Positions 26,193 to 61,473 of a DNA stretch of 64,000 nucleotides are shown here, piece by piece. Both the position numbers and the translations under genes were made by a program. Where the stretch lies: the NCBI GenBank assembly GCA_947037025.1, contig CAMQSU010000001.1, positions 111,522 to 175,521 of the forward strand, written 5' to 3'. Under the pieces are notes generated by a model. That model had not been told where the DNA came from. It saw nothing but the letters and a program-made list of their open reading frames with translations, and did no database searches. The stretch is from an uncultured Clostridia bacterium (GTDB lineage: Bacteria > Bacillota > Clostridia > Christensenellales > UBA3700). The stretch's first letter is position 1, and the number at the start of each line of letters is the position of its first letter.

Positions 26193-26462
26193 ACTGTGCT
26201 AAGTGGGGAGCTAGCGGTGCCCTATAACCTGCAATCCGCTACAGCAGGACCGAATACTACCGTAGGCATAATGTATGGAAGGCAGTCTAAGATAAGGAGC
26301 GTTGATCACAAGGTCTTGTGCAACGTCTCACTGTGAACCATGTCAGAGCTTGATCGCAGCAGCATTAAGCAGACCGAGATGTGTGCCACGAGGGTGCTTT
26401 GTAGTAGCCACCTGTTTGAGCAACGCTTCGGTATGTTATGTCAAGGGAAGTTGCACAGTCTT
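26193..26462 (+). ncRNA. ffs: signal recognition particle RNA, long Bacillus type with Alu domain (scRNA/4.5S homologue)
   Basis: By eye it matches my recollection of B. subtilis scRNA. The 5' Alu part is GTGCTAAGTGGGGAGCTAGCGGTGCCCTATAACCTGCAATCCGCTACAGCAGGACCGAAT. The domain IV region is GAACCATGTCAGAGCTTGATCGCAGCAGCATTAAGCAG. The 5' ACTGTGC pairs with the 3' GCACAGT. A terminator follows. Confidence 0.85.
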
Positions 26463-43360: not shown

Positions 43361-43707
43361 GGGGTTGTTCTGGATTCGACAGGCGGTCGGGAGATGTTGT
43401 AAGCATGCCGTAGGCTCGGCTACGTTAAAACGGAAACAAAACTTAAACGCTAAAAATAATAATTACGCTTTAGCTGCCTAGGCAGAGAGCTGTCGTGCTA
43501 GTAGTCCTGTCGGACTAGATTTCGGCATCATTTAGACGGGAAGGTCACTTTGCATTTGGTGCGCGGCATAGTGATAAATTAGCACCTTACCAAAGTATAG
43601 CCCGCCAACAGGCGATACTAAGGGAAATTCAAATTGTTGCGCTAAGCATGTAGAAAGTAATGTCAAACACTGTTTGGACACGGGTTCAATTCCCGTCAGC
43701 TCCACCA
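43361..43707 (+). ncRNA. ssrA: transfer-messenger RNA (tmRNA)
   Basis: The 5' end is GGGGTTGTTCTGGATTCGACAGG. The 3' T-arm and acceptor read GGACACGGGTTCAATTCCCGTCAGCTCCACCA. The tag reading frame is GCT AAA AAT AAT AAT TAC GCT TTA GCT GCC TAG, giving (A)KNNNYALAA. Confidence 0.9.
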
Positions 43708-44740: not shown

Positions 44741-45856
44741 TCAAAATGCATTAGGGGTATTATATAGAATCGTAGTGTGTGGGCGTTCATTATTGTAGAA
44801 ATACATATATGCGCTTATTCTTTGCTCAAATTTATTTACGGAACGATAATCCACTCTATAAATTTCTTCTTTTTTTAAATTAGAGAAAAATGCCTCCATA
44901 ACAGCATTGTTTTGCGGGCTAGCAGTAGGCGAGAAAGAGTGAGTCACATTTAAGTTCGTAAGCAGTTTTTGAAATGCATATGCTGTGTATTGTGATCCGC
45001 GGTCACTATGAAAAATTAACCCGTCATTTGGGGTTCGATCGCAATACGCTTTTTTAAATGTAGATGTGGTTAGATTGGTGCTATTCTTTTTAGACACTTT
45101 GTGAGCAATTAGTTTTCTTGAATACAAATCTAATATGGCGCAAATATAAAGGGTAGTCCCGTGTACTCTAAATTGTGTAATGTCTGATACCCAAACTTGA
45201 TTAGGTTCATTTGCCGTAAATTTAAGTCGTATATGGTCGGTTTTTCTTTTATGCAGTTTTGTATAGGTTTTTTTCGTTTCGTTTCTAATACTTTTAATGT
45301 TCATATCGTACATCAGTTCTGCCACCATTCGTTCGCTAACTACTATATCTTGATTATTAAGCACTGCTTTAATTTTCTTGCTCCCATAAATACGATTACT
45401 ATCTTCATATATCGACTTGATTTTTTCGCTTAGCATAAGTCGTCTAGTGAAATAAGATTTTTCAGTTTTTTTATTTCTAAGTAAATGATTATAAAATGTG
45501 CCTCGATCAACTTCCATAGCCTCACATAATATGTGAACGCTATACTGACCATGCAGTTTAGAGAGTTCTTGTAATCTTTCTTGCAAGTTAGATTTAACGG
45601 TGCAATTGACAGTTTTTAAGATGCATATAATGTCATCTTTTCTATTGCATAGTTTTTGCAATTTGATATAATTTTTATTACTTACTAATGAGTTTTCTTC
45701 GTCCTTGGGAGTAGTGTAGTCATTAATTATGCTGTATATAGAACTTCGAGCCATATTGTATTTTAACTTAAGTGTTAATACCGGCTCACCTTGTAAATAT
45801 GCGTTAACTATTTCTTTCTTAATCGTGTCTGTTAGTTTTATCATAATAACCTCCAA
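44741..45856 (-). mobile_element. IS3-family transposase gene (single fused ORF; element ends not identified)
   Basis: It has an N-terminal HTH, an HTH_21-like region and an rve DDE core (VWVSDIT ... HSDRGSQY ... NAVMEAFF), plus the NNERPH tail. Confidence 0.85.
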
Positions 45857-53408: not shown

Positions 53409-55349
53409 ATGAAAAAAACATTTTCAATTAATAATAGGCGATATCTAGGAAATAAGTTCAAATTAAATGATTTCATCACGGGTGTAGTGAATTCTGAGTG
53501 CGTTGGTATTAATACGGTTGCGGATATTTTTTCTGGTACTGGAGCAGTTGCTTCTGCATTCTTGGATAAGAAAATTATTACTAATGATATCTTATATTCC
53601 AACTATATATGTCACTATGCATGGTTCAGTCCAGAAAAATTCAGCGTAAAGAAGATTGCTGGTTACATTAATAATTATAATGGATTTGATCAATTATCCG
53701 GAAATTATATGTCTGATAACTTTTCTGATACGTTTTTCAGTAATGTTAACTGTATGAAAATCGGATATATTAGAGAAAATATAGAGCACGAATTCAGTGC
53801 TGGAAATATGAATAAAAGAGAAAGAGCGTTGTTGATTTGCTCGTTGTTATATGCTATGGATAGAATAGCAAATACTTGTGGGCATTATGATGCGTATAGA
53901 AAAGATGGTGATTTAGATAGATCATTAGAACTGTTAATGCCTCTCCTTGAAATTAATAATAATGCAAATAACTTGTGTTTTAATGAGGATACTAATGAAT
54001 TAATTAAAAAAATTGAAGTCGATTTAGTGTATATAGACCCACCATACAATTCAAGGCAATATTGCGATGCTTATCACTTATTGGAGAATGTCGCTAGATG
54101 GGATAAGCCTTTAGTTAAAGGTGTGGCTAGAAAAATGGACAGGGCCGAGCTAAAAAGTGATTACTGCACGAAAGCTGCGCCGTTAGCATTTGAAGAGTTG
54201 GTTTCTAATATTAAAGCTAAATACATACTTCTCTCATATAATAATATGGGTGAAAAGGGTAATGACAGATCAAATGCAAAATTATCGGATGAAGATATTA
54301 TGAGAATACTATCTTCTAAAGGCAAGGTGAAGATATTCAAGAAAGAGTACAAATCATTTACTGCAGGTAAGTCAAGTATAATTGATAATGAGGAAAGGTT
54401 GTTTTTATGCGAGTGCTATGATTATGAAAGTAAAGAGTTAATTCAATCACCACTAAATTATGTGGGAGGAAAATATAAATTATTGCCTCAAATATTGCCG
54501 CATTTTCCGAAACATTACTCTCAATTTATTGATTTAATGTGTGGCGGTGGAAATGTAGGTATAAATGTGAATTGTAATAAAGTAGTATTTAATGATTGTA
54601 ACAAGTTGTTGAGATTTATGTTTGGTACATTTAAAAGCTTAGATAAGGATATAATTTTTGAAACAATTGATAGAATTATTGAAGATTATAACTTGTCAAA
54701 TACAGCTGCTCATGGATACTCGTACTATGGATGTAATAGTAAAGATGGTTTAGGACAGCACAATGAAGCTGGATACAAAAAACTGAGACAAGATTTTAAC
54801 AATGTTGCTAAATTAGAATATAATTACTACATAGTTTTATATGTTATAATCGTATATGCATTTAATAATCAAATACGTTTTAATAAAAAAGGTGAATATA
54901 ATTTACCAGTAGGTAAGAGGGATTTTAATTGCAAAATGAGAAATAAGTTGTCTAAATTTGTTGATCGACTTAAAAACGGCGATTTTACATTGGCAAGCGA
55001 TGACTTTAGAGAATTAGATAAAAGCAGTTGGGATAAAAATACATTTGTATATATTGATCCACCATATTTAATTGGGTGCGCAACATACAATGAACAGGGC
55101 GGTTGGACAGAAAAATCTGAGCAGGAACTATTAAAATATTTGGATGAATTGCATTGTAAGGGTATAAAGTTCGCACTTTCTAATGTTTTTTCTAGTAAGG
55201 GAAAGACGAATGATATATTAAAAAATTGGGCAAAGGTAAATGCTGATAAATATAGAGTTATTTATTTAAATTATAGTTATTCAAATTCAAATTATCAAAT
55301 CAAGGATAAAATATCTCCGACTGAAGAAGTGTTGATAGTAAATTATTAA
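53409..55349 (+). CDS. fused double N6-adenine DNA methyltransferase (two Dam/D12-class domains), type IIS-like
   Basis: Domain 1 has RRYLGNKFKL...FSGTGAV...VYIDPPYNSRQY. Domain 2 has LNYVGGKYKLLP...MCGGGNVG...VYIDPPYLIG. Both AdoMet and DPPY motifs are therefore present twice in one 646-aa chain. Confidence 0.85.
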   Translation: MKKTFSINNRRYLGNKFKLNDFITGVVNSECVGINTVADIFSGTGAVASAFLDKKIITNDILYSNYICHYAWFSPEKFSVKKIAGYINNYNGFDQLSGNYMSDNFSDTFFSNVNCMKIGYIRENIEHEFSAGNMNKRERALLICSLLYAMDRIANTCGHYDAYRKDGDLDRSLELLMPLLEINNNANNLCFNEDTNELIKKIEVDLVYIDPPYNSRQYCDAYHLLENVARWDKPLVKGVARKMDRAELKSDYCTKAAPLAFEELVSNIKAKYILLSYNNMGEKGNDRSNAKLSDEDIMRILSSKGKVKIFKKEYKSFTAGKSSIIDNEERLFLCECYDYESKELIQSPLNYVGGKYKLLPQILPHFPKHYSQFIDLMCGGGNVGINVNCNKVVFNDCNKLLRFMFGTFKSLDKDIIFETIDRIIEDYNLSNTAAHGYSYYGCNSKDGLGQHNEAGYKKLRQDFNNVAKLEYNYYIVLYVIIVYAFNNQIRFNKKGEYNLPVGKRDFNCKMRNKLSKFVDRLKNGDFTLASDDFRELDKSSWDKNTFVYIDPPYLIGCATYNEQGGWTEKSEQELLKYLDELHCKGIKFALSNVFSSKGKTNDILKNWAKVNADKYRVIYLNYSYSNSNYQIKDKISPTEEVLIVNY

Positions 55350-55358
55350 GGAGGAATT

Positions 55359-57344
55359 ATGAGCGAGATTAAATTTAAAAGTTATTGCTGGTGTGTAGGA
55401 ACTACTAGTTATAGGACTAAAAATTACGGTTTAAGTATAGAATTGCAATTAGATTTATTGGATAGATTTTTGCAACTCGAAAGCAGTCAAAATCAAGACT
55501 GGAGAGAATTGCAAGCTGCTTACTATTACTACTTGAAAAAAAACGGGTTTGTACAGGGTGATGCATTACGTCCAGATAAAGATGCTCGTGAAAAAACTTC
55601 AGGTATGGTTGATATAGGGCTATTGACTCAGCAAAGAAAATTGACAGAAGCCGGTGAGGCATTGCTGTTAATGAGTCGTAATAAAGATTTTAATGATGGT
55701 AATGAAATGCAAATACAAGCAGATAGTTATTTGTATTTTAAACAGTTGCTGAAGACTTCTATAACAGTAGAAGGTAAGATAATCAGACCATTTATAGTGT
55801 TCCTTTATTTATCGTCCAAATTAGATGGATTATCTATTGAAGAATTTGCATACTTCATGCCGATGTGTGTAGATAATATTACTACTCAGCGCATTATTGA
55901 AGAGATTAAGTTGTTTAGACTTGGTAAGGTAGACTTAGATGATGCGATATTTAGTGTAGTTGAAAAGATGGACAACTATGTTAGTGCTTTTGATTTGTTA
56001 TCTAAAAGCACAGTCGTTGATGCAGATCTAATTTGCACAATTGGGTTTAACCGTAAAAGCAAGTCGGTAGCAAAGTATGATACTATATTCTTAGATATAT
56101 ATAATGCTTTAAATAACATATATATTAAAGAGGATAATGACGTATCGGAGTTATATGAAGCAATTTGTAAGATTAAGGGCAACACTAAAGTGCTTTGGAA
56201 AAAGAAGTTTTTTGGCAAAAATATCAAAAGCTTAATATTGGAACAGGGAAAGTCAATAATGCAACATACTGAGTTCGATTCCGCTAAAACAGTACAGGAT
56301 ATAAAAAGATTATTTTTTAAGACATTGCATACATTTAAAGTTAAAGCAACACTTGCTGATTACAAGGACCTGAACAGAAGATATTTCATGTTATCTGATT
56401 GTATATTGTTCAAAGATGGGCGCGTTGAAATTGATGTTTTGCCAAAAGCATATATTAAACCAATCATAGATGGATTATATAATCAGGCATACATAAAGTT
56501 TGATCTTAAAGGTCAGGATTTGCCTTTATATGAAATTGACAATAATTTCAAAACTTCTTTGAGTGGATTATATAAGGAATTAAGTAATTCATTGGGCGTG
56601 ACTGTTTCAAATGCTGAAGAAGCAAAGAATATAGTTAGGGATGTACGATACAGCAGGTTTAATCAAATGTTAGATGAGAAATATAGTAAGAGCCAATTGG
56701 TTAATCTACTAAGCATGTTTGAGGATCGAAGCGATGACGAGTTGAATAAATACATAACTGATGCAGCGCTAGTACCTACATTATATGAATATATTGTAGG
56801 TATAGCTTGGTATCAAATCAGCGAACGACAAGGCGATATTTTAGAATATATTAATTTATCTTTAGATGCTAATTTATTGCCAAAGTCCCATGCTGGAGGA
56901 TTAATGGCTGACATTGTGTATCAGTATGAAGCTAATCAGTACTATCCTAAACATTCATTATTAATTGAAGCAACATTAAGTGAGAAAGGTGGGCAACGAA
57001 TAATGGAGATGGAGCCTGTTTCTAGACATCTAGGAGAATATTCTATTGCTAATAAGGGGAGTGAATGTTATTGTGTATTTGCTCCCACAAACTTAAATCC
57101 AAATATAGTGTGTGATTTCAGAATGAGAAAAAATGCTTCGTATGTTAAATTTGATGGAACAGATAGTATTAGAGGACTAAAGATTATACCTTTTGCAAGC
57201 AGTGAATTAAAAACAGCTTTAATTAATGATATTAGTTACAAGAGTTTATATGAAATTTTTGCTGATGCACACAATTCAGAGGCCGAAGATATAGACTGGT
57301 ACGCGGCGGAAATTGTGGACAGGCTAAATCTATGCGTTCAATAG
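55359..57344 (+). CDS. putative type IIS restriction endonuclease (AlwI-family-like), partner of the double methylase
   Basis: It starts 9 nt after the methylase stop, with an AAGGAGG RBS, and is 661 aa. The N-terminal W.VGTTSYR...KDAREKTSGMVDIGLL resembles what I recall of the AlwI/MlyI/N.BstNBI family. The C-terminal region has a D...E.(T/K)-type candidate (LMADIVY...LLIEATL). The call rests mainly on context. Confidence 0.5.
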   Translation: MSEIKFKSYCWCVGTTSYRTKNYGLSIELQLDLLDRFLQLESSQNQDWRELQAAYYYYLKKNGFVQGDALRPDKDAREKTSGMVDIGLLTQQRKLTEAGEALLLMSRNKDFNDGNEMQIQADSYLYFKQLLKTSITVEGKIIRPFIVFLYLSSKLDGLSIEEFAYFMPMCVDNITTQRIIEEIKLFRLGKVDLDDAIFSVVEKMDNYVSAFDLLSKSTVVDADLICTIGFNRKSKSVAKYDTIFLDIYNALNNIYIKEDNDVSELYEAICKIKGNTKVLWKKKFFGKNIKSLILEQGKSIMQHTEFDSAKTVQDIKRLFFKTLHTFKVKATLADYKDLNRRYFMLSDCILFKDGRVEIDVLPKAYIKPIIDGLYNQAYIKFDLKGQDLPLYEIDNNFKTSLSGLYKELSNSLGVTVSNAEEAKNIVRDVRYSRFNQMLDEKYSKSQLVNLLSMFEDRSDDELNKYITDAALVPTLYEYIVGIAWYQISERQGDILEYINLSLDANLLPKSHAGGLMADIVYQYEANQYYPKHSLLIEATLSEKGGQRIMEMEPVSRHLGEYSIANKGSECYCVFAPTNLNPNIVCDFRMRKNASYVKFDGTDSIRGLKIIPFASSELKTALINDISYKSLYEIFADAHNSEAEDIDWYAAEIVDRLNLCVQ

Positions 57345-57491
57345 AAATAATAAGCAAGCTTTTTCAATATGTGTAAAAGAAATAAATAAATTGACACAAA
57401 TTACAAAGCTGCAAGTCATTAATACGGGTTATAACAAAGAAAATTGCATATCGAAAATTGTTGGTCGCATAGAATGATTAAAGGAGAAATA

Positions 57492-59552
57492 ATGGAGAAA
57501 GAAAATAAGTTGTTTGACAGAGCGAATAAAATATTAGTAGAATTATTTGGAGAAAATGCAATTTTTAGAGATGGTCAATTCGAAGCCATAGAAGCCGTAA
57601 ATATAAACACAAGGACGATTGTAGTACAAAAAACGGGTTGGGGAAAAAGTCTAGTTTACTTTTTGTCAACAAAGATTTTTAGAGAAGATGGCAAAGGTGT
57701 AACAATAATTATCAGTCCTTTGTTAACTTTGATGGCTAATCAAGTTGATTCAGCAAAAGTATATGGCTTGAATTGTGAAATTATGAATTCAACTAATAAA
57801 AATTGTCATGCTGAAATATTCGCAAAACTAAAATCAAATGAAGTTGATGTATTGTTCACTACTCCTGAAACATTATTTAGTGCAATTAAAAAAGAATTAA
57901 CTAATATTAAAATAGGATTTCTCGTTATTGATGAAGTTCATTGCATATCGGATTGGGGGCATGATTTTAGGCTTGAATATTGTAAATTGAAAGAAATTAT
58001 AGGATTGTTGCCTCAAAATGTGCCAATATTAGGAACAACAGCAACAGCAAATGATAGAGTTGTCTCTGATTTGAAAGATCAATTTGGTAGTGATGTGTAC
58101 ATATCAAGAGGTCCATTGACTAGAGAATCGTTAGCAATAGATGTCATCAAAATGCCTGATAAAGCGAGTAGATATGCATGGATATTAGACAATATTAACA
58201 AATTAGATGGTAGTGGTATAATATATTGTTTAACCAAAATGGATTGTGGATATTTGACTGAATTTCTTGATAAAAATGGTGTATCGGCAATGTGGTATTG
58301 TTCAAATAACAATGCAGAAGAATATCTATTTGAAGCTGAAAGAAAGTTCATGAATAATGAGATAAAAGTGCTCGTTGCAACTATTAAGTTAGGTATGGGA
58401 TATGACAAAGGCGATATAGGATTTGTTATACACTATCAAATGCCAAGTAATGTTGTAGCTTATTATCAACAAATTGGACGTGCTGGTAGAAATATTGACA
58501 AAGCATATGCGATAATGTTAACAGGAAAAGAGGATTCTAGTATTACTAATCATTTTATTAATAATGCTTTCCCATCAAGGAAAGAGGTTGAAAATATTAA
58601 GACTTTGTTAGAAGAAACTAATGGAATGAAAATTGCAGAAATATTATCAAAAGTTAATATTAATCGAAAGAGAGCTTTAAAAGCGATTGAATTTTTAGAA
58701 AAAGATGGTTATATTTTTAAAGAGAATCATTCCTATTATTTGTCACCTAAACCATTCTATTATGATGAAGAAAAATATACTGCTTTAAAAAATATACGAA
58801 ATAGAGAATATTCGGACATGCAGTCATTAATAGAGAGAACTGAATGTTTGAGCAAGTTTGTAGTTAATAGATTAGATGATAATACTGCTGTTAATTGTGG
58901 TAAATGTTCGAATTGTATAGGTCATCATATATTATCTGAAAAAGTTAATGTCGAAAAACTCGAAATTAGTCAAGAATATATTAAAAGTTTGAAAATGCTA
59001 ATTGAGCCAAGGAAGCAATGGACAGATAGAAAACGTTTGACTTATTTTAATTATCAAGGCATTGCGTTGTCTAGATATGGCGATATAGGATATGGCGAAT
59101 TAGTTAAAAGAGATAAGTATTCTAATCAAAAGAGGTTTTGTGATGAATTAGTTGGCAAAAGCAGAGAGTTGCTAATGCCTTATATTAAAGATCATAATAT
59201 TACTCACATCACTTCTATTCCGTCATTAAGAAGCAATATTGTAACTGATTTTGCGAAGAGGTTAGCAAGCGTATGTAAATTGGAATATGTTGAGTTATTA
59301 AGCAAAGTAGTACGTGATAATGATTTTCAGCAAAAAGATATGGAAAATTCATCATTTCAAGAGCGTAACGCTATAGAATCATTCGAATTTATAGAAGGAA
59401 GAAGTGTTCCTTTAAATATTATTCTAATTGATGATGTTGTTGATTCAAAATGGACTCTTACAGTATGTGGGCACAAATTGATGGAACATGGATGCAAGTT
59501 AGTGTTCCCGTATGCACTAGCTGATAGTTCGCAAGGAGGTAGCAATGAATAG
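57492..59552 (+). CDS. RecQ-family helicase fused to a C-terminal ComFC-like phosphoribosyltransferase domain
   Basis: RecQ motifs are present: QKTGWGKSLVY, IDEVHCISDWGHDFR, GTTATA and QQIGRAGR, plus the Zn motif CGKCSNC. The C-terminus carries the PRPP-loop motif NIILIDDVVDSKWTL. The start is at MEKENK, after AAGGAG. Confidence 0.8.
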   Translation: MEKENKLFDRANKILVELFGENAIFRDGQFEAIEAVNINTRTIVVQKTGWGKSLVYFLSTKIFREDGKGVTIIISPLLTLMANQVDSAKVYGLNCEIMNSTNKNCHAEIFAKLKSNEVDVLFTTPETLFSAIKKELTNIKIGFLVIDEVHCISDWGHDFRLEYCKLKEIIGLLPQNVPILGTTATANDRVVSDLKDQFGSDVYISRGPLTRESLAIDVIKMPDKASRYAWILDNINKLDGSGIIYCLTKMDCGYLTEFLDKNGVSAMWYCSNNNAEEYLFEAERKFMNNEIKVLVATIKLGMGYDKGDIGFVIHYQMPSNVVAYYQQIGRAGRNIDKAYAIMLTGKEDSSITNHFINNAFPSRKEVENIKTLLEETNGMKIAEILSKVNINRKRALKAIEFLEKDGYIFKENHSYYLSPKPFYYDEEKYTALKNIRNREYSDMQSLIERTECLSKFVVNRLDDNTAVNCGKCSNCIGHHILSEKVNVEKLEISQEYIKSLKMLIEPRKQWTDRKRLTYFNYQGIALSRYGDIGYGELVKRDKYSNQKRFCDELVGKSRELLMPYIKDHNITHITSIPSLRSNIVTDFAKRLASVCKLEYVELLSKVVRDNDFQQKDMENSSFQERNAIESFEFIEGRSVPLNIILIDDVVDSKWTLTVCGHKLMEHGCKLVFPYALADSSQGGSNE

Positions 59553-60510
59553 TAATTCAGAAATGATTGTAATACTATGTAGTAGATTATGTATGGGCGA
59601 ATCAATAAAGCCGTTAGAGTCGGCAGAATGGAGTAAGTTTGCATTACGTATTAGGGATTCAGGGCTTGAACCGAAAAATTTGTCTGATTTTTCTAAAGAT
59701 GAGTTAGTTAAGAAGTTGTTAATAAAAGATGAATTTGCTCAAAGAATTTTAGATTTAATAGGTAGGTCTGTAAGTTTATTTATTGAGCTTGAGAGATATT
59801 TTAATATTGGTATCAAAATCGTAACTAGAGCTGATAAAGCGTATCCAAATAAATTATCAAGAAATTTAGGAAATAGCAAGCCACCATTTTTTTATTACGC
59901 AGGCGATATAAATATTTGTGACGATGAGTCAATTGGATTTGTTGGATCTAGGAATATATCAGAAACCGATATCAGTAATGTGCAAGAGTTGGTAAATAAA
60001 GCAAATAAGTTAGGATATACTATTGTATCTGGTGGTGCAAAAGGTGTAGATTCAATTGCGACTAATCAATCATTATTAAATGGTAGTGCTGTTGTTGAAT
60101 TCGTTGCTGACTCGATGATTAAGAAGATAAAAGTAGCTAATTATAGTAAAGCAATAAGAGATGGTCGGTTAGTAGTACTTTCTGCAGTTAATCCTGATGG
60201 AGGATTTAATGTTGGTAATGCTATGAGTAGAAATAAGTTTATTTATACTAGTTCAAAGGCTACAATAGTTGTAAAAACTGACTACAATAAAGGCGGAACA
60301 TGGGCGGGTGCAATTGAGAATATGCGACAAAAGTGGAGTCCAGTATATTGTGTAGAAAATAATCGATATGAAGGTAATAGGGCGTTGATTTCACAAGGAG
60401 CAATAGCCATTAATACTGAATGGGATTTTAATATTGAAAAGAAAGATAAAGTTGAACGAATTCAAGAAATTAGCATTTTTGAATTGTTGAATAGTAATAA
60501 TAAAGTATAG
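59545..60510 (+). CDS. DprA/Smf-like (SLOG/Rossmann) protein
   Basis: It has VTRADKAYPNKL...PPFFYYAGD...IGFVGSRNIS...GYTIVSGGAKGVDSIA...MSRNKFIY...GGTWAGA, which is the DprA core pattern. It overlaps the RecQ-PRTase gene by 8 nt. Confidence 0.75.
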   Translation: MNSNSEMIVILCSRLCMGESIKPLESAEWSKFALRIRDSGLEPKNLSDFSKDELVKKLLIKDEFAQRILDLIGRSVSLFIELERYFNIGIKIVTRADKAYPNKLSRNLGNSKPPFFYYAGDINICDDESIGFVGSRNISETDISNVQELVNKANKLGYTIVSGGAKGVDSIATNQSLLNGSAVVEFVADSMIKKIKVANYSKAIRDGRLVVLSAVNPDGGFNVGNAMSRNKFIYTSSKATIVVKTDYNKGGTWAGAIENMRQKWSPVYCVENNRYEGNRALISQGAIAINTEWDFNIEKKDKVERIQEISIFELLNSNNKV

Positions 60511-60559
60511 TGATAGAAAAAATTATTTTAGACGTAATCATTATTCTTAATATCAGCAT

Positions 60560-60586
60560 GCAAGGATGTTATTCATCCTTGCATTT
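60560..60586 (+). terminator. terminator-like hairpin after the dprA-like gene
   Basis: GCAAGGATG (60560-60568) pairs with CATCCTTGC (60574-60582), followed by ATTTT. Confidence 0.6.
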
Positions 60587-60762
60587 TGCATGTTCAATGT
60601 GTTATATAGTAGAATTGCGAACCTAAAATTTAAAAATTTGCAAAATTATGCCATTTAACTGCAATTGATGTTGTTAATATTATTTTTCTGTCAAAATTAA
60701 TGAATTATATGGTATAATATGGGAAAAGATTAATAAATAATATTTATAAATAAGGAGGGTGT

Positions 60763-61473
60763 ATGACTGCAATACCCAATCAAAGAGAATATTTAGCTAA
60801 AGGTGAGAAATTTAAAAATCATGTTAAAGAGTTCGATAAATATCTTAGAACCGACGAGTGCATTATTGTACATATAGATGGGGTCGATTTTACGAGTGGA
60901 TATTATAAAAAATTGAAGGTTCCATATGATTACAATTGCTTTAAAGCCATATGTAATACTGCGGTTAAACTATGTGGTGAAATAAAAAGTGCACGACTTT
61001 GTTATGTAGCGAATGATGAAATAGTAGTAATACTAGATGGGGCTGAAATCAAGGAGAACTTTCACAATAGAATACAGAAAATATCATCTATATTGGCTAG
61101 TATGTGCTCTGTATATTTTATTGCTGAATTAGAAAACATCATAGCTTCAGAATTTCCACATAATAAGGGATATGCAGTGCTGAAGGATAATGCTGTTTTT
61201 GCTGCAAAATGTTTTAATTTGGAGAAGCATTATATTAATGAATATTTTCAATGGAGACAATATGGATGTAAAAAATCTATTTTTGATAAAAGATTGAATT
61301 ATGATGGTCAGGATGAGTGGGTGAAAAATGGCGCTGTTGTACTTCATAGTGAGGATAATTGGGTATGCAGAACTGATGTTGATTTAACTAAACATAAGCT
61401 TGTTAGATCACCGCAAAATAAGTTTTATTTTCCTATAGAAGTAAAATTGGATAAAAACATGGGGGCGAAGTGA
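60763..61473 (+). CDS. Thg1-like protein (tRNA-His guanylyltransferase family 3'-5' nucleotidyltransferase)
   Basis: Blocks align by eye to eukaryotic Thg1 as I recall it. IIVHIDGVDF matches VVVRLDGRNF. CYVANDEIVVIL matches AYGQSDEYSFVF. NRIQKISSILAS matches RRASKFMTHVAS. YFQWRQYGCKKS matches YLSWRQADCHIN. The metal-binding acidic residues are conserved. Confidence 0.75.
   Translation: MTAIPNQREYLAKGEKFKNHVKEFDKYLRTDECIIVHIDGVDFTSGYYKKLKVPYDYNCFKAICNTAVKLCGEIKSARLCYVANDEIVVILDGAEIKENFHNRIQKISSILASMCSVYFIAELENIIASEFPHNKGYAVLKDNAVFAAKCFNLEKHYINEYFQWRQYGCKKSIFDKRLNYDGQDEWVKNGAVVLHSEDNWVCRTDVDLTKHKLVRSPQNKFYFPIEVKLDKNMGAK

Follow-up and report, generated by a model that had tools for sequence, protein, structure and literature searches.

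Two overlapping genes in the window (the whole stretch of 64,000 nucleotides that was analysed) very probably form a PsyrTA (RqlHI) module, a toxin-antitoxin and anti-phage system, and the two genes are probably translationally coupled. The pair is an ordinary copy of PsyrTA. The initial annotation of this DNA read it as a toxin-antitoxin or defence pair, which is right, and stated that a version fused to RecQ could not be placed in any named system, which is wrong, as both genes match PADLOC models of PsyrTA over nearly their whole length. The observation is thus correct and already known; it is not new because the architecture is that of the published PsyrTA/RqlHI, reported as psyrTA in P. 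syringae (Sberro 2013), as RqlH-RqlI in E. coli F11 (Russell & Mulvey 2015, PMC4670107) and as the phage defence system PsyrTA in Bacillus (Millman 2022).

Identification of the gene pair

The psyrT product matches the PADLOC PsyrT model (PDLC03928) with E = 2.6e-226, residues 9–681 aligning with model positions 6–686 of 689, and the psyrA product matches the PsyrA model (PDLC03927) with E = 1.6e-88 over model positions 4–304 of 398. When both proteins are compared with an E. coli pair of like architecture, the identity is 40% for PsyrT (residues 10–680) and 32% for PsyrA (residues 1–285). The nearest relatives are 57% identical. The window copy probably belongs to a host of the Bacillota type with low GC.

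The pair was initially described as ShosTA-like. The kinship stands: the psyrA product also matches ShosA models (E = 6e-23), ShosA is its best solved relative, and the PRTase fold of ShosT is alike. Membership in ShosTA does not stand, as the ShosA match falls far behind the PsyrA match and PsyrT is matched end to end, so that the best fit among the named systems is PsyrTA. The window toxin carries a full RecQ core, whereas ShosT is described as a PRTase-domain toxin and no helicase is mentioned in those descriptions; PsyrTA and ShosTA are also listed separately by Millman 2022. Membership in ShosTA is refuted by the PADLOC scores, and we consider it very improbable.

The open reading frame that contains psyrT spans 57444–59552 on the plus strand. 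The start of the gene is likely the ATG at 57492, which gives a product of 686 aa, because AAGGAG is found 5 nt upstream and the N-termini of homologues agree with this position. No such Shine-Dalgarno site precedes the in-frame ATG further upstream (57474) or the TTG at 57444. The coordinates of both genes and their overlap of 8 nt (59545–59552, ATGAATAG) were confirmed as initially annotated, and the overlap suggests translational coupling of psyrT and psyrA. Downstream of psyrA, the segment 60545–60605 folds into a hairpin with a free energy of -20.3 kcal/mol (z = -4.9; none of 200 shuffled sequences was equally stable). This hairpin has a short U-tract and was not called as a terminator by the consensus scan. 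The features of the locus are collected in Table 1.

Table 1. Features of the psyrTA locus (positions refer to the window)
Feature	Coordinates	Strand	Evidence
Shine-Dalgarno AAGGAG, 5 nt 5' of psyrT ATG	57481..57486	+	read from sequence
psyrT (rqlH), toxin gene, 686 aa RecQ-like helicase-PRTase fusion	57492..59552	+	PADLOC PsyrT, NCBIfam recQ_fam, E. coli homologue
RecQ-type ATPase/helicase core, residues 1-343: Walker A GWGKS (K52), DEVH (D147-H150), QQIGRAGR (R330, R333)	57492..58520	+	Pfam, 1oyw
Family-specific linker, residues 363-419, weak winged-helix signal	58578..58748	+	sub-threshold Pfam wHTH: HTH_45 6e-4, HTH_24 4e-3
Four-cysteine zinc-binding module, C452, C469, C472, C475	58782..58916	+	RecQ_Zn_bind, conserved cysteines
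ComF-type PRTase domain, residues 486-686: PRPP loop IILIDDVVDSKWT (D647, D648, S652, W654, T655), loop PSLRS (R580)	58947..59549	+	AlphaFold model, Foldseek, PDB profile search
Shine-Dalgarno GGAGG for psyrA, within psyrT 3' end, 5 nt 5' of second ATG	59535..59539	+	read from sequence
psyrA (rqlI), DprA-like antitoxin gene, 321 aa, short form without C-terminal HTH	59545..60510	+	PADLOC PsyrA, Pfam, structure model
Terminator-like hairpin 3' of psyrA: 11-bp stem, 5-nt loop, then UUUG	60558..60584	+	fold

Helicase core and zinc module of PsyrT

Along the psyrT product, the RecQ-type helicase core comes first; a linker and a zinc module with four cysteines follow, and a ComF-type PRTase forms the C-terminus. 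The initial domain reading of a RecQ core, a ComF-type PRTase and a DprA-like partner is borne out by Pfam (DEAD, Helicase_C and DNA_processg_A) and by structure models, and the motifs that were quoted for it, DEVH, GRAGR, CGKCSNC and IILIDDVVDSKWTL, are all present. The core matches DEAD with E = 8e-23 and Helicase_C with E = 2e-14, and residues 9–343 align to E. coli RecQ (1oyw) with E = 8e-47. The Walker lysine K52, the DEVH box and the arginines R330 and R333 are invariant across 14 family members. The score of the zinc module against RecQ_Zn_bind (23.3 bits) is marginally short of the 25-bit cut-off; its four cysteines are invariant in the family, and CGKCSNC is aligned with CGNCDIC of E. 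coli RecQ in the 1oyw alignment. The cysteines C380, C397, C400 and C403 of E. coli RecQ have the same 17-3-3 spacing as those of PsyrT.

Many PADLOC models of DpdF also match the helicase core, with E values down to 8.5e-84, as they would if the window helicase belonged to a Dpd system (7-deazaguanine DNA modification) as its DpdF-type component. However, the PsyrT model is matched much more strongly and over its full length, the NCBIfam DpdF model NF041063 gives a score of 143.6 against a cut-off of 550, and the neighbourhood holds restriction-modification genes, a Thg1-like gene and Hachiman with no other dpd genes. Membership in Dpd is ruled out by the model scores and the context, and the probability that we attach to it is negligible.

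The C-terminal PRTase domain

Sequence support for the PRTase is weak, with E = 0.034 for Pfam Pribosyltran on the isolated C-terminus and E = 0.0039 for comF (TIGR00201). When a profile of 20 sequences was compared with the PDB, the matches at the PRPP loop were all of the PRTase type, the best with E = 0.003. Because these searches pointed to PRTases without significance, a structure model was built, and the model settled the fold. The AlphaFold model of residues 486–686 has a pLDDT of 89 and its Foldseek matches are exclusively PRTases, with H. pylori ComF at the top (7p0h, TM 0.57) and ShosT (8zvd) at TM 0.54. The identity of the PsyrT C-terminus as a ComF-type PRTase is confirmed by this predicted structure.

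The two aspartates of the PRPP loop, D647 and D648, are invariant in the family. We infer that the DVVD starting at D648 is the counterpart of DIVD in E. coli RqlH, a motif in which the substitution D663A abolishes toxicity (Russell & Mulvey 2015, PMC4670107).

The DprA-like partner

The psyrA product matches Pfam DNA_processg_A with E = 2.4e-31 over profile positions 5–210 of 212. Its structure model (pLDDT 92) has ShosA as best match (8zva, E = 9.5e-17), followed by S. pneumoniae DprA (3uqz). The protein differs from E. coli RqlI (400 aa) in that it is without the C-terminal HTH, which is dispensable in RqlI, where residues 1–320 suffice. The short form without HTH is found in 26 of 64 genome copies.

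Pairing, distribution and genomic context

The co-occurrence of the two genes was surveyed in genome loci from many phyla. In 64 of the 73 evaluable loci a PsyrA-like ORF adjoins the helicase-PRTase gene, and in all but one of these paired loci (63 of 64) the ORF follows immediately on the same strand. All Bacillota/Clostridia-type loci in the sample (seven) and one from Fretibacterium are paired. The family HMM found no divergent PsyrA in the seven unpaired loci for which about 10 kb of sequence 3' of the gene was available. Near full-length copies of PsyrT occur on plasmids (18 copies), and the phage collection yielded matches to the helicase core only, with no full-length PsyrT. The neighbourhoods of close homologues are mutually unrelated and include type I RM with GmrSD, AAA_21 with RloB, PIN with HipA, Fic and plain housekeeping genes, as expected of a self-contained mobile module. 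Several close relatives adjoin restriction or toxin genes.

In the window, genes for a D12 methyltransferase and an AlwI-type endonuclease lie 5' of psyrT, and HamA lies 3' of psyrA, with HamB just past the window end. The position between a restriction-modification (RM) system and Hachiman was therefore given correctly at the outset. This part of the window is a low-GC island that also holds a SIR2 protein, so that PsyrTA is a further defence system there beside SIR2, type II RM and Hachiman. The window copy thus combines the identity and architecture of PsyrTA, intact catalytic motifs and a conserved pairing with a mobile and variable context.

The RecQ-family core, the DprA fold, a PRTase closest to ComF and the fact that the related RqlH of M. 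smegmatis is an active helicase would also fit a housekeeping pair for DNA repair or competence, either RecQ with DprA or an analogue of ComFA/ComFC/DprA in ssDNA uptake. PsyrT scores above the subfamily cut-off of NCBIfam recQ_fam but fails the recQ equivalogs, with 282.6 against a cut-off of 640.2 for TIGR01389 and 210.6 against 1015 for NF008279, and a Pfam search found no HRDC domain in it; these results rule out a canonical housekeeping RecQ. PsyrA scores 86.8 against a cut-off of 191.15 for the dprA equivalog TIGR00732, and no com or repair genes are found beside the pair at the window locus or in nine other contexts, so that a competence DprA is ruled out as well. The position of the pair varies among close relatives, none of which lie in competence loci, and the window copy sits in the island described above. 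A housekeeping role of this kind is accordingly a most doubtful reading of the pair. The initial comparison with the ComFA/ComFC/DprA trio holds at the level of domains only, as competence genes are absent nearby and in relatives, while the PRTase and DprA assignments themselves hold.

A different question is whether the window PsyrTA is functionally coupled to the adjacent RM system, as a second line that senses restriction failure or inhibition or restriction-made DNA ends, and is not free-standing. The gene for the AlwI-type endonuclease ends 147 nt before the start of psyrT, both genes have the same orientation, and no terminator-like element or consensus promoter was called between them. 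E. coli 2/0 and Providencia carry the pair inside a type I operon (hsdM-hsdS-psyrT-psyrA-hsdR), and hsd genes also flank it in three other loci. On the other hand, an RM neighbour was found in only about 4 of 80 genome loci by a search of low sensitivity, some relatives sit among housekeeping genes, and defence genes co-cluster for non-functional reasons too. Moreover, validated RqlHI and PsyrTA constructs functioned as two genes (Millman 2022; Russell & Mulvey 2015, PMC4670107). Coupling to the RM system is thus unlikely. We consider it similarly improbable that PsyrTA in general is a non-autonomous guard of restriction systems, whose RecQ-like motor would read restriction-made DNA ends or ssDNA, or would detect that anti-restriction proteins of a phage have disabled restriction, and would then free the PRTase. 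Such a guard would have its analogue in PrrC, which guards EcoprrI, and if it exists, the chemistry of the PsyrT PRTase could be a new nucleotide- or DNA-directed reaction.

Apart from PsyrTA, the first gene of the neighbouring Hachiman operon is a rare Thg1-like gene that has a promoter of its own. The Thg1-like gene pairs elsewhere with other defence-like partners, and a nearly identical copy stands ahead of another helicase operon. A scan of Thg1-like loci, based on an alignment of 5 sequences, argues against a constant pairing with Hachiman, as four more distant relatives are without HamA or HamB. The Thg1-like cassette is a more unusual item of the window than PsyrTA.

Proposed mode of action

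In E. coli, RqlHI shows PRTase-dependent genotoxicity, and RqlI binds and neutralises RqlH (Russell & Mulvey 2015, PMC4670107). One PsyrTA protects against phages, and a deletion of psyrA was unobtainable (Millman 2022); in one study E. coli PsyrTA, whether native or over-expressed, failed to protect against the phages that were tried. In the literature on the PsyrTA mechanism we found no PsyrT biochemistry beyond that of M. smegmatis RqlH. By analogy with these orthologues, the window copy would be toxic through its PRTase, be neutralised by binding, have the same helicase polarity and act in phage defence.

PsyrT would thus be a RecQ-like 3'-5' DNA helicase with the C-terminal ComF-type PRTase as its toxic effector. 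PsyrA, whose DprA-like structure joins a helical N-terminal domain to a Rossmann/SLOG fold, would bind PsyrT and silence the PRTase, which the helicase domain would also hold in check. Infection may upset this restraint in one of two ways: host shut-off would deplete PsyrA, or phage ssDNA and replication intermediates would act on the helicase or draw PsyrA away. The released PRTase would then use PRPP in a reaction that upsets nucleotide or DNA metabolism, and the ensuing DNA damage, SOS response, filamentation and growth arrest would abort phage replication. The short PsyrA may alternatively neutralise indirectly in the manner of ShosA, via DNA repair instead of binding. Partnerless RqlH is common in Actinomycetota, and the helicase may for this reason have a role other than that of a toxin.

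Comparison with known systems

PsyrTA/RqlHI and the pair in the window have in common two overlapping genes with the toxin first. The toxin is a RecQ-like helicase of about 690 aa that continues into a linker, a zinc module of four cysteines and a ComF-like PRTase; its partner is DprA-like and carries an N-terminal domain. Earlier publications already cover this architecture, the action as toxin and antitoxin, the role in phage defence and the analogy with ComF and DprA, and the window copy illustrates the short PsyrA without HTH that is common in Clostridia-type genomes.

The domain order and size of PsyrT are also those of M. smegmatis RqlH, which comprises an ATPase (1–346), a linker, a four-cysteine zinc module (435–499) and a ComF-like PRTase and is the biochemically proven 3'-5' translocase/helicase of the clade (Ordonez, Unciuleac & Shuman 2012). 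The linker of PsyrT (residues 363–419) corresponds to the "RqlH-specific linker" of that protein. Unlike PsyrT, the mycobacterial enzyme is without an RqlI partner and no toxin role is described for it.

The competence proteins ComFA, ComFC and DprA resemble the window pair in combining a helicase, a ComF-type PRTase and a DprA fold, and H. pylori ComF is the nearest match to the PRTase model. The competence proteins are, however, separate proteins encoded in competence operons, whereas the domains in the window are fused and belong to a mobile module in a defence island. ComFA is a DEAD-box protein and not of the RecQ type. The domain parallel with ComF and DprA has been published (Iyer et al. 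2017, PMC5512222).

ShosTA and PsyrTA share a PRTase-domain toxin that needs PRPP binding, a DprA-like antitoxin with a SAM-like domain and a Rossmann fold, a phenotype of DNA damage and filamentation, and an anti-phage role. The structure papers on ShosTA report that ShosT requires PRPP binding and that ShosA binds ssDNA and RecA. ShosA is reported to neutralise through ssDNA and RecA without binding ShosT, whereas RqlI binds RqlH.

Identity of the gene pair

The psyrT product matches the PADLOC PsyrT model (PDLC03928) with E = 2.6e-226 over model positions 6–686 of 689, and the psyrA product matches the PADLOC PsyrA model (PDLC03927) with E = 1.6e-88 over positions 4–304 of 398. These matches to named PADLOC models identify the pair as PsyrTA, and because of them a standard defence-annotation tool should make the same call. 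PsyrTA and RqlHI are one system (Millman et al. 2022). The initial annotation had described a RecQ-PRTase fusion with a DprA-like partner, had likened it to ShosTA or to the competence machinery, and could place it in no named system. The observation was correct and the system is already known: the fusion, the partner, the toxin-antitoxin logic and the defence role have all been published, and the parallel with ComFA/ComFC/DprA is likewise in print (Iyer et al. 2017, PMC5512222). The profile searches proposed there (RecQ/DEAD, Helicase_C, DprA, PADLOC) recovered the domains and returned PsyrTA, not ShosTA. Membership in ShosTA was rejected, as the toxin carries a helicase and the PADLOC ShosA models match the psyrA product at only 6e-23 and 5e-13, far below its PsyrA score. 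Two other candidates were rejected: DpdF, on its score and the absence of dpd genes, and a housekeeping RecQ plus DprA or competence analogue, on equivalog cut-offs, context and mobility.

Features of the window around the psyrT-psyrA pair (psyrT and psyrA from the ORF list)
Feature	Position	Strand	Remarks
Large (Bacillus-type) SRP RNA	26194-26458	+	
tmRNA gene (ssrA)	43361-43707		
IS3-family transposase gene	44741-45856	-	after tmRNA
SIR2_2 protein, 984 aa	48853-51807	+	weak ThsA/Dsr2/PDC-S25-type matches, SIR2 part only
DUF4062 protein, 307 aa	52313-53236	+	505-nt gap after SIR2_2 gene; no PADLOC match
Type II restriction-modification pair	53409-57344	+	two D12-class adenine methyltransferase domains in one 646-aa protein, plus an AlwI-family endonuclease
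psyrT	57492-59552	+	ATG 57492; can open at TTG 57444
psyrA, 321 aa	59545-60510	+	
Thg1-like gene, 236 aa	60763-61473	+	rare clade; 3'-5' nucleotidyltransferase fold

Gene layout and protein domains

An AAGGAG with a 5-nt spacer precedes the first ATG of psyrT, which also agrees with the N-termini of homologues in the family alignment, and the product was therefore taken as 686 aa. Both open reading frames are present as first described, with an overlap of 8 nt (ATGAATAG), and all protein motifs quoted at that stage occur in the window sequence. A GGAGG lies within the 3' end of psyrT, 5 nt before the psyrA ATG; together with the overlap this pattern is typical of translational coupling.

In Pfam, PsyrT matches DEAD (8e-23) and Helicase_C (2e-14), with RecQ_Zn_bind marginally under threshold and weak winged-helix signals at residues 363–419; no HRDC domain was found in the protein. 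The core matches E. coli RecQ (1oyw) with E = 8e-47, the CGKCSNC of PsyrT being aligned opposite CGNCDIC. The family alignment shows no variation at C452, C469, C472 and C475, whose 17-3-3 spacing is that of E. coli RecQ. PsyrT scores above the NCBIfam recQ_fam subfamily cut-off and below the RecQ equivalogs.

The PRTase was the sole uncertain element of PsyrT, its sequence matches being weak (Pribosyltran, E = 0.034 with the isolated C-terminus; comF TIGR00201, E = 0.0039). The family profile has 15 matches in the PDB, all of PRTase type and aligned at the PRPP loop (15/15, best E = 0.003). An AlphaFold model of residues 486–686, built from an alignment of 20 family sequences, has a pLDDT of 89, and Foldseek matches it in the PDB to PRTases only, with H. 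pylori ComF (7p0h) first at TM 0.57 and ShosT (8zvd) among the matches at TM 0.54. The model and its PRTase-only matches support the ComFC-type PRTase originally read from the motif.

The DprA-like assignment of the second gene also held, with DNA_processg_A matched over the whole Pfam model (2.4e-31) and a score under the NCBIfam DprA equivalog cut-off. The PsyrA model (pLDDT 92) is built of a helical N-terminal domain plus a Rossmann domain, and its nearest PDB structure is ShosA (8zva, E = 9.5e-17), followed by S. pneumoniae DprA and the wider SLOG/LOG/MoCo-carrier group. Among 64 paired genome loci PsyrA falls into two size classes, 26 short (about 260–370 aa) and 38 long (404–482 aa). The window protein belongs to the short class, and the part it lacks relative to the PADLOC model should, by analogy with E. 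coli RqlI, be the C-terminal HTH, which experiment showed to be dispensable there.

Distribution and pairing

A word-index search with PsyrT found at least 8000 clusters at E below 1e-10, the best 120 of which (query excluded) have 54–58% identity, at least 98% query coverage and mostly 682–711 aa. A one-genome-per-species scan yielded 596 relatives; the best 80 of these are nearly all near full length and come from Clostridia, Chloroflexota, Actinomycetota, Proteobacteria, Cyanobacteria, Verrucomicrobiota and a Halorubrum.

Co-occurrence of the two genes, a check proposed in the initial annotation, was confirmed by searching locus ORFs with PsyrA and then with a family HMM. A PsyrA-like ORF adjoins psyrT in 64 of the 73 loci with sufficient downstream DNA, 63 times as the next gene downstream in the same orientation and once directly upstream. 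Neither search found PsyrA in seven loci with about 10 kb of flank (five Actinomycetota, one Chloroflexia, one Halorubrum), which agrees with the published observation that Gram-positive genomes, mostly actinobacterial, often carry RqlH alone. The upstream psyrA, in a Chloroflexota locus (L020, 9040–9990), departs from the published rule that it is always downstream. At another locus (L092, 9052–9585) the gene after psyrT is a 177-aa PsyrA remnant that keeps the N-terminal domain and has lost the Rossmann core.

Genomic context

As first described, the pair lies between a restriction-modification (RM) system and Hachiman: the fused double D12 methyltransferase and AlwI-family endonuclease, a layout expected for an asymmetric-site cutter, are followed by psyrT-psyrA, the Thg1-like gene, HamA and, past the window edge, HamB. 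The 147 nt between the endonuclease gene and psyrT yielded neither a terminator nor a consensus promoter in the scan, and transcripts of the RM genes may run on into psyrT. Fold computation places a stable hairpin 3' of psyrA, and a putative promoter and ribosome-binding site were read by eye ahead of the Thg1-like gene, where the consensus scan called no promoter. Given the hairpin and the by-eye promoter, PsyrTA and Hachiman are probably not co-transcribed.

The defence island is situated on the downstream side of ssrA, a well-known target for integration. An LRR/Flg_new surface-protein gene follows the tmRNA and transposase genes; beyond it (48000 onwards) the defence genes have a G+C of about 0.30, down from about 0.38–0.40. 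The SIR2_2 and DUF4062 genes may be a further defence gene or pair at the island start. A Bacillota host is suggested by the SRP RNA, by the low G+C and by the nearest PsyrT relatives, which are Clostridia-like.

The neighbourhoods of nine close homologues are wholly different from one another (type I RM with GmrSD; AAA_21 with RloB; Fic with HTH; PIN with HipA; plain housekeeping genes), as would be expected of a module that is self-contained and mobile. Competence or repair genes were found beside psyrTA in none of the nine, and with the PRTase and DprA folds both confirmed, the initial annotation is contradicted on neither point. Functional coupling of PsyrTA to restriction systems could be read from hsdM-hsdS-[psyrT-psyrA]-hsdR operons that enclose the pair in E. 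coli 2/0 (L091, 2652–12731) and Providencia (L039), from hsd genes adjoining it in three further lineages (L049, L070, L084), and from the position of the window psyrT directly after an endonuclease gene; most psyrTA copies, however, have no RM neighbour, and we consider such coupling quite improbable. We favour the self-contained module. The Providencia rqlHI DNA is matched by 1678 of 5426 complete E. coli genomes.

The Thg1-like gene

The Thg1-like protein retains the catalytic DG and DE motifs, is matched by no PADLOC model, and its gene stops 3 nt before hamA. Nothing but the protein itself came up in a word-index search of 5.8 billion proteins; a full HMMER scan against 1.84 billion representatives gave roughly 15 relatives of full length (25–42% identity) and, further out, only ordinary Thg1/TLP proteins aligned mainly over residues 14–172. 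Among the related loci (L087–L090 and L096–L099), four metagenome relatives have no Hachiman; in these four the gene immediately upstream encodes an RNase III protein that carries dsRNA-binding domains, in one case next to IetS- and HipA-like genes. Another defence island contains a copy at least 90% identical in protein, flanked on one side by a McrBC-like pair and on the other by an operon that encodes an unknown 195-aa protein, an SF2 helicase, PDC-S11 and bSEFIR. DNA homology of that locus to the window is confined to 60639–61421, the promoter region and most of the Thg1-like gene, which looks like a conserved cassette heading different helicase-containing defence operons.

Comparison with known systems

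The window PsyrT shares its domain plan with M. smegmatis RqlH, a 691-aa 3'-5' translocase and helicase with a RecQ-like ATPase (1–346), a specific linker, a four-cysteine zinc domain (435–499) and a ComF-like PRTase C-domain (Ordonez et al. 2012). The E. coli comparison pair is annotated as "RecQ family ATP-dependent DNA helicase" and "DNA-processing protein DprA"; window PsyrT is 40% identical to the former (residues 10–680) and window PsyrA 32% identical to the latter (residues 1–285). E. coli RqlH without RqlI is genotoxic, causing an SOS response and filamentation; toxicity depends on the PRTase and is abolished by D663A, helicase-dead RqlH is also toxic with a different phenotype and a viability not rescued by RqlI, the two proteins bind each other, and RqlI 1–320 without the C-terminal HTH is a sufficient antitoxin (Russell & Mulvey 2015, PMC4670107). 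Millman et al. (2022) counted PsyrTA as one of several toxin-antitoxin pairs with anti-phage activity and could not obtain a psyrA deletion; in one study E. coli PsyrTA gave no protection against the phages tested there.

In the orthologues the PRTase is the toxic part, restrained by both PsyrA and the helicase domain. The window pair is conserved and probably coupled, and both enzymatic parts of PsyrT look intact. Infection might deplete or titrate PsyrA, or engage the PsyrT helicase on phage DNA; the PRTase would then be set free, leading to DNA damage and an arrest of growth that would abort the infection. In the sister system ShosTA, the toxin ShosT binds PRPP and upsets both purine metabolism and replication, whereas ssDNA and RecA are bound by ShosA; triggering has been connected either with the host shut-off that T7 Gp0.7 causes, combined with ShosA instability, or with phage ssDNA.
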